Assembly (NCBI GenBank): GCA_015058945.1 | Contig: SVBF01000007.1 | Coordinates: 133,850-197,849, forward strand | DNA from: Erysipelotrichaceae bacterium | GTDB taxonomy: Bacteria > Bacillota_I > Bacilli_A > RFN20 > CAG-826 | Length of the DNA stretch: 64,000 nucleotides | Direction: 5' to 3' | Shown here: in pieces, positions 36,001 through 39,000 of the stretch | Layout: each line of letters starts with the position of its first letter | Position numbering within the stretch: position 1 is the first letter of the stretch | Position numbers: made by a program

Positions 36001-39000
36001 CGAAATGGGTTAAGTTGTTTATGCCAATGATCAGGGAGTAGCCGCGATACTGGCCCTCAGGCTGCGGATGCGCCTCCACAAACCTTTCATTCTGCCCGAA
36101 GGCGACCGACCAGATTTCCGACGGCGCAACCGTCGTGTGGATGGGGTCGGATACGCCGGTTGTGACATCAACGTCTTGAACAACCGGAATGGACTCGAAC
36201 TGGGATCCGGTGGCGGCGTTGAAGGTGAAGATTTTGCTCGTGGCCTTGGCCTCGAAGATGGCGTTTAGCTTCGGGCCTCCGCCGAGGGCCAGCGTGGCGA
36301 CGACAGCAGCGCAGCCGAGGACGGCCAGCGACGCGATTACTACTGTTCTCTTCATTTTCTTGACCTCTATGTAGGTAAAACCGTTTAGGGTTGCCGAATT
36401 ATAGGGAAAAGAGGGCGAAAAAGGCAAACAAAGGCGGATGACTGTTTCAATTTGAAACGTCGACCATGCCTTTAGACAAGGGAAAGGGGCCGACGGCTCA
36501 TTCGCCGCATCGGCCCCTCGGGTTCATTTCTTGCCGTAGAGCCTCTGGAGTATCTCCGTGGCCTTCCGCATCGTCGCCTTCTCCTCCTCGGAGATGGATC
36601 CCACGACGAAGTTGTTATAGAAGAGCCAGTCAAGGGGGCGTCGAGTACCATCGACATCTTGAAGAAAGGCATCGCGGACTTCGGGAACGTATCCGCGGTC
36701 TCCCAGTGGCTCGAGAAGAAGGAGCCGGGCAAGGTCCGCTTCGTGTTCGTGATGCGCTCCTGCAACGACATGCGCACCTGGCAGCAGTTCATGACCACCG
36801 TGTCGCAATAAGCCTTACATAAGGTAAATGAAAAATACGCGTTTTCAATCGTGCGCCAACCAAAATGCCTCGAAAACCGTGGCAATATCGTGAGACAAAT
36901 TCTTCAAAAATCAAATAAAGTGCCGATGACATCGACACTCTTTGCACAAATGGAGCACGATGCGGATCGCCAACCCTACATTTGCTTCTCATTTTTAAGC
37001 AGATAATTTACTTTTTAAGCAAATAAAACGATGTTTACGAAGCCAACACTCAATCGTTTTCGTCTTTCCTCGTCAGCAGGAAAATGGCTTTTTGGCGCTC
37101 AATCTCGTTTCTAAGTTCCGTCTCGTCCGGCATGTATGTTTTGTATTTCGCCGCGAAGATCTGCTCGTTTCCCTTAAGCACGCTATAACGGGCGATGTCC
37201 TCATCGGTCTCCGCGCACAAAAGGATGCCAAGCGTAGGATTGTCATCCGCGCCCTTGATCCTCTCGTCATACATGCGGACGTACATATCCATCTGCCCGA
37301 CGTCCTGGTGTTCGATCTTCTTGGCCTTGAGGTCGACGAGCACGAAGCAGCGAAGGAAGTAATTGTAGAAAACGAGGTCGACGTAGTAGTCCTTCTTCTC
37401 CGTGTGGATCCTCTTTTGCCTTGCGACAAAGGCATAGCCCTTCCCCATTTCGAGCAGGAACTGCGCCAAATGGTCGATGATGGCCTGCTCGAGTTCCGTC
37501 TCGTCGGGCCGTTCCGGATTTGGCAAACCGAGGAATTCCGCCACGAAAGGGTTCTTCACGTACTCAAGCGGATCCTTTGAGGGAGCGATTCCCTGAGGCA
37601 GCGCAGGCAGGCCGCCACTTTGGGTGGAGAGCAATCTTTCGTAGTATTGACTATGAATCGCCCGCTGCAGGTCGCGGACGCTCCAGCCAGAGGCAAGCGC
37701 CTCCTTTTCGTAATAGGGCCTTGCCACATCGCTATCGACGCGGATCAATAAAGCATAATGAGACCACGAGAGGAAAGAATTTCCAGACAGCGTTTGGAAA
37801 ATGTTGGGGAAAAGCCTATAGAAACGAACATAGGTATAAAGGCTGGATTTGTCGAACCCGCTTCCGAATTTTTCGGTCAAAAACGCCGATAGCTTCTTGA
37901 TAATCGACTTCCCATAGTCGTTGGCTCTCGTCGAGAGAATCTCCTCGTCAATGCGCTTGCCGATTAGATGGTTTCGCCGCAATAGTGCGATATTGATAGC
38001 ACGCACCGCGTCTCGCTTCGATGCCTCGACGATGGCGGAAACATCGGCGGAGACGTCCCCGGACTTGGACACCGAGAAAGCGGGCATAGCGATCATCTGA
38101 TTGCCGGCGACGATTTCCTCATAAAGCGCGTTGACCTTCGCCGCCGTTTCGTAATTGGGGCCGAAATGCCCATTCTCCAATCTGTTGACCGTGGAGAAGC
38201 TGACGCCCAGACGCTTTGCCATATCGGTTTGCGACAGTCCGAGCGCCCTGCGGACCGCGATGAGTTTCTCTTTGAATTCCATGAAAGAATTATATCGCAT
38301 TAATGCTATATAAACAAGGGGCCTTGCGCAAAATTGCATCACGCGGTTCCGGTGCGCCTACAAATGTCGATATGCATCCAGTACATGCGTCAAAGATTCC
38401 CCGCACTGCTTCATTTGCATGGAACGTCCCGGACGAAACAACATCGGAGCACTACATAGTCATCGTGCTTCTGAACTGCATTGGTGGCTTGTAGTTTTCA
38501 GCCACCAACCTCGATTTTTTGCGAAAATTGGTATGAGGGTGGTATGGAGAGACGTCTGCTGTTCCGGATTTAATAAGCGCGATCGGGTGAATTTGGAGCG
38601 CAGGAATCACGATGCGGGTCGCAGCAATGCATAAACTGACAAATACTGACAGAAACTGACAAGAGGTTTCGTCATGGCTACGAATCCGTTTACCCTCATG
38701 TTTTCTCACAATCCCATGACGCAACATCGTCTCGGAGGTTTACTCCGACTTCTCCAGCCCATTTATAGAAAACGCAAGCCGTCCCCAGTGGCGGCTTTTT
38801 GCAAGGAATACACAAAAACTACACAAAAACTACACAACGGAAAAATAAAAATGCCGAGTTTATCGGCACTTTTTGATTAGTGGAGCACGATGCGGGAATC
38901 GAACCCGTATAACCAGCTTGGGAAGCTGGTGTTCTACCACTGAACTAATCGTGCGGGCAGGGATAAATCTAGCTGTTTTATCCCGTATTGTCTAGCCGTT

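Follow-up and report, generated by a model that had tools for sequence, protein, structure and literature searches.

A tRNA-Gly(CCC) gene as a probable integration hotspot, followed by a decayed, integrase-less and defense-rich array, in uncultured rumen Bacilli

The DNA examined here, referred to throughout as the window, is a stretch of 64,000 nt from an Erysipelotrichaceae bacterium (assembly GCA_015058945.1, contig SVBF01000007.1, positions 133,850 to 197,849). It carries a tRNA-Gly(CCC) gene that is probably a hotspot for site-specific integration in a clade of uncultured rumen Bacilli, and that is followed by an accreted, decayed, integrase-less and defense-rich array of segments resembling cis-mobilizable elements (CIMEs). 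A first-pass annotation of the window had already proposed decayed, accreted islands without integrases at this tRNA gene, and the proposal is now backed by a break in synteny, by a prophage polymorphism in a relative (L023; related genomes, contigs and phage stretches are cited by such handles) and by three flank homologies.

The tRNA gene was placed by ARAGORN at the same coordinates and on the same strand as in the first-pass annotation. The CCA is encoded, the 3' end reads TGGAGCACGATGCGGGA on the plus strand, and all 74 nt are identical in the relatives L007, L008 and L017. The block repeated downstream is CCCGCATCGTGCTCCA, in which the 3' strands of the T-stem and of the acceptor stem are followed by the discriminator base and CCA. 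Seven displaced copies of this core were found, every one of them downstream of tRNA-Gly and in the same orientation as the tRNA. Five are in the window and two are beyond its left end, on L135, the contig that covers the left side of the window (L135 position minus 6361 gives the window position). The gene and its displaced copies are as follows.

38881-38954, minus strand: intact tRNA-Gly(CCC), the presumed integration target and proximal end of the array
38608-38618, minus strand: partial core copy CCCGCATCGTG (searched as CACGATGCGGG)
36951-36967, minus strand: displaced 3'-end copy, 15/17, ATCCGCATCGTGCTCCA
24951-24967, minus strand: displaced 3'-end copy, 16/17, TGGAGTACGATGCGGGA
23059-23075, minus strand: displaced 3'-end copy, 16/17, TGGAGCGCGATGCGGGA, followed by its own hairpin and T-run (23013-23058, fold z = -3.6)
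18808-18818, minus strand: partial core copy CCCGCGTCGTG, 10/11 (searched as CACGACGCGGG(A))
L135 2577-2593, tRNA strand: displaced copy left of the window, 17/17
L135 907-923, tRNA strand: displaced copy left of the window, 15/17, the last of the array

The first-pass annotation had listed three displaced copies, at 36951, 38608 and 18808, and all three are real, but those at 23059 and 24951 and the two on L135 had been missed. It had also described the copy at 36951-36967 as an exact 17-nt match. The copy stands, but only 15 nt are exact: it reads TGGAGCACGATGCGG and continues with AT where the tRNA has GA, and the 15-mer is itself far beyond chance. The two copies on L135 lie about 3.8 and 5.4 kb to the left of window position 1, and the array is therefore about 44.4 kb long, with positions 1-38954 of the window inside it. 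Accretion of an accessory block, earlier placed between 18.8 and 38.9 kb, is supported, but the limit at 18.8 kb was wrong and the array runs past the left end of the window.

The frequency of the copies is not that of chance. Allowing up to three mismatches, the 17-mer has 4 matches in the window against 0.23 expected from shuffles, and the 11-mer partial core has 3 against 0.06, which bears out the partial copies at 38608 and 18808. The 13-mer with up to two mismatches has 9 matches against 2.56 expected, with six of the nine in the array block between 18.8 and 38.9 kb, all on the plus strand. Three control loci away from tRNA-Gly (L132, L133 and L138; 41 kb together) have no core copy at up to three mismatches. 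Most copies carry 1-3 substitutions or are cut to 11 nt, and the base preceding the repeated block differs among them. No significant similarity to the tRNA extends 5' of the core beyond 17-18 nt in any copy (anchored-extension shuffle test, p = 0.17 to 1). A MAFFT alignment had hinted that the copy at 24951 spans the whole tRNA, as would a full-length decayed pseudo-tRNA, and this was excluded by the same test. The arrangement is not an assembly artefact, since independent JGI, ENA and Logan assemblies carry it as well, at 99.4-100% identity. Three contigs (L004, L005 and L006) end at the tRNA; this was considered as a sign of strain heterogeneity and rejected, because an identical 74-nt tRNA common to several species would break assembly graphs anyway.

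The first-pass annotation had named a comparison with related genomes as one way to check its proposal, and in that comparison synteny ends at the 3' end of the tRNA and occupancy beyond it differs among relatives. In the species collection, the nearest genomes are L007 and L008, two rumen 'Bacilli bacterium' metagenome-assembled genomes (MAGs), and further loci were found through homologs of a DUF4234 protein. An upstream set consisting of tRNA-Thr, tRNA-Val, the DUF4234 protein, a P-type ATPase, NUDIX and an ABC transporter is conserved in L007, L008, L017 and L021, and the similarity of the window to L007 and L008 stops exactly at the tRNA-Gly 3' end. L023 and L021 come from strains of one related species. 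L023 is 99.84% identical to L021 over the 3168 nt up to the end of the tRNA, and continues with a 382-aa integrase, cI/cro-like genes and phage genes, none of which are found in L021 or L022. This is a direct occupancy polymorphism at tRNA-Gly. In L017 the tRNA is followed by GmrSD, helix-turn-helix (HTH), HsdM and HsdS genes and a 409-aa integrase, and in L025 and L026, which belong to a more distant species, by the housekeeping genes DAC, GlmS and GltX, which looks like an empty site. The content downstream of tRNA-Gly also differs among L017, L008 and L134. None of the genes that follow the tRNA in relatives (GH31 in L008; DAC, GlmS and GltX in L025) were found in the window, which does not reach the core genome on the far side. 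Core copies recur in the arrays of relatives, where L021 has two extra copies, and L134 has the order XRE-YhcG gene, core, a segment corresponding to window 25947-25659 plus an HTH gene, core, DUF4143 ATPase gene, core and phage capsid gene.

Three flanks in the window, on the 38770, 36824 and 24921 sides, are homologous to sequence that lies directly after tRNA-Gly in other genomes. These flanks, and the features between the tRNA and the copy at 36951, are listed here.

38770-38880, minus strand: attL-arm relic of an L023-like prophage, 111 nt, tRNA-proximal
37033-38510, minus strand: module common to the L134 array, 93% identity (blastn), with one gene inside
37050-38282, minus strand: XRE-DUF1016_N-YhcG_C gene (PD-(D/E)XK nuclease; Pfam), PADLOC candidate PDC-S02 (E = 8e-124)
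36824-36950, minus strand: former tRNA flank, with a terminator hairpin at 36917-36941 (terminator scan, fold)
24921-24950, minus strand: relic of the native tRNA-Gly terminator (CCCTCGA..CGAGGG), T-run lost

The tRNA together with the 111-nt arm (38954-38770) matches L023 3094-3278 at 92.4% identity over 185 nt, and the homology stops 19 nt short of the stop codon of the L023 integrase. That gene, which is next after the arm in L023, is absent from the window, and no phage genes are left in the array. The arm has an intrinsic terminator at 38847-38873 (terminator scan; fold -13.4 kcal/mol, z = -4.8) and a second hairpin at 38778-38792. Judged from these matches, the 111 nt that follow the tRNA in the window are a relic of the tRNA-proximal arm of a prophage.

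The flank of the copy at 36951 (36965-36824) matches what lies immediately 3' of tRNA-Gly in L017, at 87.3% identity across 142 nt, and the copy was therefore once a working tRNA end, with 36824-36950 sitting directly behind tRNA-Gly at that time. On the element side of this copy, at 36980-37030, are two direct TTTTTAAGCARA repeats that may be another att-arm relic. The flank of the copy at 24951 (24967-24921) shares 81-87.5% identity across 48 nt with the sequence that flanks the tRNA in L007, L008 and L021, and its score was reached by 0/500 shuffles against each of four native flanks. The two partial copies show weak resemblances: the flank at 38608 matches the native terminator region of L007 (79% over 38 nt, shuffle p = 0.002, not corrected for multiple tests), and the flank at 18808 matches the native terminator of L021 (score 15, 0/500 shuffles as high, likewise uncorrected). 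Left of the window, the flank of the L135 2577 copy has counterparts in L134 (81.5% over 119 nt) and next to copy 3 of L021 (84% over 57 nt), while the L135 907 copy and its flank resemble the tRNA flank of L008 (77% over 87 nt) and the flank of copy 2 of L021, with GGGTTACATTTGGGTTAC.

The XRE-DUF1016_N-YhcG_C protein (410 aa, true start at 38282) is encoded by the sole gene within 36968-38880, and the earlier description of the 1.9 kb between the tRNA and the copy at 36951 as holding only an XRE-DUF1016 nuclease-like gene agrees with Pfam. It was also considered whether this gene always travels with tRNA-Gly, and this was rejected, as homologs of 71% identity are solo genes among housekeeping genes with no core nearby.

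From 16.8 to 39.8 kb, Pfam detected no integrase domain in the open reading frames (ORFs) that were scanned, and a tblastn search that used two integrases of tRNA-Gly islands as queries found no integrase pseudogene in the array, in line with the first-pass annotation, which had seen no integrase near the copies. The sole integrase-type match is a 304-aa recombinase at 6655-7569, assigned to an hsdS shufflon (see later); as a candidate island integrase it was rejected, being a neighbor of the shufflon with no adjacent core, and about 25-26% identical, in the catalytic domain, to tRNA-Gly-island integrases. Relaxase, coupling-protein and type IV secretion system (T4SS) domains were absent among the ORFs scanned by Pfam. 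A search of IMG/VR for phages with a corresponding attP returned 0 matches for the tRNA 3' 25-mer, the 18-mer, the L023-type arm, the c2577-type flank and relatives of the L023 integrase, and megablast of 18700-39000 against GenBank phages and PLSDB plasmids gave no match.

Three sets of short direct repeats lie near the tRNA or the partial cores.

38808-38836, minus strand: three direct TGTGTAG(N)TTTT repeats, period 11 bp (2 overlapping matches, 0.01 expected)
38636-38661, minus strand: three TGTCAGT units phased by 10 bp (ACTGACA/ACTAACA on the plus strand), 17 nt from the partial core at 38608
18836-18861, minus strand: three TGTYAGT units, 17 nt from the partial core at 18808

The pattern TGTYAGTNNNTGTYAG occurs at only the last two of these places in the window (4 overlapping matches against 0.00 expected), and the units at 38636-38661 lie upstream of the partial core on the tRNA strand. 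The first-pass annotation had noted ACTGAC decamers following these two copies and had suggested that they could be arm-type recombinase sites. The decamers are real and their spacing is exactly 17 nt in both cases, but a role as arm-type sites found no support. They are absent from the elements of the relatives L017, L021, L023 and L134, including those that bear integrases, and a scan of IMG/VR for decamer repeats together with the core found nothing. The generic repeat pattern is present in 105 phage stretches of IMG/VR, at the start of late operons and not beside integrases, and the arm-type proposal was rejected on these grounds. As an observation in its own right, tandem TGTCAGTnAA repeats of 3 to >13 units were seen in about 100 IMG/VR stretches (L027-L131; e.g., L051 7449-7474, L033 3969-4114 and L099 9993-10018), where they follow a gene of about 140 aa resembling DUF1492/sigma70 region 4 and precede HNH and terminase genes, with a TATAGT or TATAAT box next. 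They look like a late-promoter or packaging-site motif.

The TGTGTAG repeats are conserved in L023, with the tRNA terminator on one side and the integrase gene on the other, and by analogy with the lambda P' sites this block is a better candidate for arm-type sites than the ACTGAC decamers. Short direct repeats of the CCACGAWTTT / CCGCACGRWTT type were also seen 45-100 nt downstream of several cores in three lineages (window 36850-36900, L017 10970-11010 and L134 6330-6370), and may be arm-type sites of T-stem-class integrases.

Between the copies at 36951 and 18808 the array consists of three core-bounded segments, with the following content.

24968-36950: 12-kb segment (Pfam), GC 52.0% against 55.3% on the conserved side
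33044-34923, strand not given: HTH-response regulator and histidine kinase (Pfam)
29948-31891, strand not given: S41 peptidase (Pfam)
27783-28746, strand not given: small lipoproteins (Pfam scan of the segment)
26500-27987, strand not given: CBM26 protein (Pfam)
25035-25700, strand not given: DUF3800 protein (Pfam)
23076-24950: 1.9-kb islet with one main gene, GC 46.9%
23171-24475, minus strand: AAA_14-DUF4143 ATPase gene, PADLOC candidate PDC-S01 (E = 8e-100)
18819-23058: 4.2-kb segment with a Lipase_3 protein (19048-21627) and a transmembrane protein (21821-22657)

The GC contents of the small islets are 50.0% and 46.9%, compared with 55.3% on the conserved side. Most of the 12-kb segment (25948-36950) is missing at the corresponding place in L134. 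The promoter and first ~45 nt of the DUF3800 gene (window 25659-25947) are 93% identical to L134 2739-3190, and behind that common 5' end L134 has a different gene of 291 aa (HATPase_c_4, wHTH, HTH_3), which looks like replacement of a gene body. The pair of Lipase_3 and membrane-protein genes occurs twice in the array (window 19048-22657 and L135 2594-5712). A further such pair, at L021 11141-14367, belongs to the first islet behind tRNA-Gly and has the reverse orientation with respect to the tRNA.

The distal part of the array, at the left of the window, holds the following.

1-18807: distal array part with an alpha/beta hydrolase, a small HTH protein, a PLD-family protein, restriction-modification (R-M), a second two-component system and a cytolysin (Pfam, PADLOC)
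16814-17686, strand not given: GIY-YIG-DUF4357 gene, PADLOC candidate PDC-S14 (E = 3e-73)
7.6-16.6 kb: Type I R-M system (HsdR, HsdM) with an hsdS shufflon
6655-7569, minus strand: 304-aa tyrosine recombinase, adjoining four hsdS genes in alternating orientation (region 6655-12193)

The hsdS segments are inverted and re-joined in L136, another strain of the window species, and the region 6655-12193 is a Type I R-M shufflon with phase variation. As far as position 6636, strain L137 matches the window at 99.4% identity; beyond it L137 diverges (L137 12995-21266), with genes for an AAA_11/AAA_12 helicase, a Schlafen-group-3 helicase, a MazG-like protein, DUF4417 and Ntox50 replacing the recombinase and the R-M block. 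No copy of the tRNA core is present at this junction. The defense role of PDC-S01, PDC-S02 and PDC-S14 is a computational prediction. Two further observations concern the genes of the array. The pairs of HTH-response regulator and LytS-type histidine kinase at 3020-4905 and 33044-34923 are paralogous, with 78% nt identity over 302 nt between the kinase genes, and a homolog of thiol-activated (cholesterol-dependent) cytolysins (526-2139, Pfam E = 8e-51) lies within this array of a rumen Bacilli genome.

The preferred history of the site, integration and accretion followed by decay, may be outlined as follows. Elements whose attP consisted of the last 16-17 nt of the tRNA (from the T-stem 3' strand to CCA) together with a terminator of their own would have inserted repeatedly, each insertion restoring the tRNA and displacing the old 3' end and its flank downstream. 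Later deletion would have removed the integrases and most backbone genes, and the remainder would be a chain of CIME-like, integrase-less segments bounded by direct core copies, running from 38954 to about 5.4 kb past the window start. Within the interval 36951-38954, sequence comparison suggests at least three layers, for which we infer the following order: an older state in which the tRNA stood directly before what is now the 36950-36824 flank, then the arrival by insertion of the XRE-YhcG (PDC-S02) module, and a later insertion of an L023-like phage of which only the 111-nt tRNA-proximal arm would survive. One integrase-mediated event per copy, the order of events and the loss of integrases by deletion are likewise what we infer from the arrangement. 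The similar arrays of L134 and L021, the strain difference inside the array of the window species (L137) and the lower GC of the small islets also favor this history.

Several points weigh against so simple a history. Since no integrase or pseudogene is left in the array, no event can be tied to a particular enzyme. The borders of the modules common to L134 sit 40-106 nt off the cores, and other recombination must therefore also have shaped the array. Were integration simply serial, a single native-type flank would be expected, at the far end, and native-type flanks are found at four copies. The part of the tRNA that an L023-type phage brings is at least 30 nt long, compared with fragments of 15-17 nt, so that the relic arm and the fragments come from different integrase classes, and more than one class has used the site. 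Finally, the same-species contigs found all share the order of the tRNA-proximal 20 kb, with no empty site among them, and for occupancy within the species only the distal variant L137 was found. The several native-type flanks, the offset borders and the different fragment lengths suggest that composite elements with internal att copies may have moved as units, and that general recombination may also have acted.

An alternative, considered unlikely, is that the cores are still active and that the array is serviced in trans, with integrases of incoming phages or islands that target tRNA-Gly excising, reordering and spreading single-gene defense modules, in the manner of an integron without a resident integrase. 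The two islets of about 1.9 kb, each with one defense-candidate gene (PDC-S02 and PDC-S01), the similar modules found in another order between cores in L134 and L021, and the distal copy that is still 17/17 would all fit such a system, and cis-mobilization of CIMEs is documented in other bacteria (PMC5704250). Against it, the module borders do not match the cores, most copies are substituted (1-3) or cut to 11 nt, and the 71%-identity XRE-YhcG homologs stand alone among housekeeping genes away from any core; neither circles nor excised forms were seen.

Less probable again is a defense-island hotspot turned over mostly by homologous or illegitimate recombination, where one or two old integrations left fragments and the other variation is unrelated to the att copies. 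The block exchanged in L137 at a core-less junction (6636), the offset L134 borders and the DUF3800 promoter and first ~45 nt shared with a different L134 gene are the kind of change expected from it, but seven copies with at least four flank types, each matching tRNA- or core-adjacent sequence elsewhere, are hard to obtain from one or two events. Chance matches, or a local duplication that copied the tRNA 3' end and terminator with no mobile element involved, can be dismissed as highly improbable, for although two partial copies are only 11 nt long and their similarity to native terminators is moderately significant before correction for multiple tests, the copies outnumber expectation (4 against 0.23 and 3 against 0.06), share one orientation on one side of the tRNA, never hold tRNA sequence 5' of the core, and have flanks that match tRNA-adjacent sequence of other genomes, a prophage arm included.

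Tandem accretion of decayed, CIME-like islands at a tRNA gene is a known process, and no new mechanism is revealed here. What the array provides is an example from an uncultured rumen lineage, in which decayed elements pile up in a long chain at one tRNA gene, which becomes the main variable, defense-rich region of the genome. Tools that expect an integrase in each island, such as Islander, would reject every segment, so that counts of such arrays are probably too low. The displaced fragments, read together with their flanks, form a legible record of past occupants, and could be used to trace the exchange of defense genes among related gut bacteria. If the cores do still recombine, which is doubtful, the array would be a store of single-gene defense cassettes, shuffled and moved between strains by incoming integrases, as a parasitized integron-like system.

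Among known systems, the attP of phage lambda, with its arm-type sites P'1-P'3, offers a comparison for the TGTGTAG repeats. Likeness is seen in the three direct repeats, their 11-bp period, their distance of about 45-73 nt from the core and their position between core and integrase in the related prophage, although an arm-type role remains a candidate one for them; the ACTGAC repeats differ in flanking two partial cores on the opposite side and in having no counterpart linked to an integrase. Integrons share with the array a chain of short, often single-gene modules split by a recurring sequence that resembles a recombination site, but no intI, attI or attC is present in the window array, the repeat is a tRNA fragment, and the borders lie off the repeats. 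Defense islands at tRNA hotspots are similar in cargo, which here is mainly Type I R-M, PDC-S01, PDC-S02 and PDC-S14 and a Schlafen-like gene just outside the window, and in being strain-variable; part of the window cargo differs in being non-defense (two-component system, S41 peptidase, lipoproteins and lipases).

In the islands catalogued by Islander (Hudson, Lau and Williams, PMC4383910), the ends are a regenerated tRNA gene (tDNA) and a displaced fragment, the T-stem region is listed among the attachment sublocations, an integrase is required in each member of an array, and 4 arrays of at least 3 islands were found among 3919 islands. The window array differs in having no integrase and in its seven fragments chained over about 44 kb, and agrees in the intact tDNA, in the displaced 3' fragments of the same orientation that start in the T-stem region, and in a site that is differently occupied or empty among relatives. 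CIMEs and tandem accretion, e.g., ICESt1/CIME of Streptococcus thermophilus, have been reviewed (PMC5704250); in CIMEs the genes for integration and transfer are gone, while att copies are retained at both ends. Unlike these, the window segments give no sign, among the ORFs scanned, of descent from an integrative and conjugative element (ICE) or an integrative and mobilizable element (IME), and at least one contributor was a phage (the L023-like arm). As in CIMEs, the segments at 36968-38880, 24968-36950 and 23076-24950 are core-bounded and integrase-less, and would have been built by successive integrations at the 3' end of the target gene.

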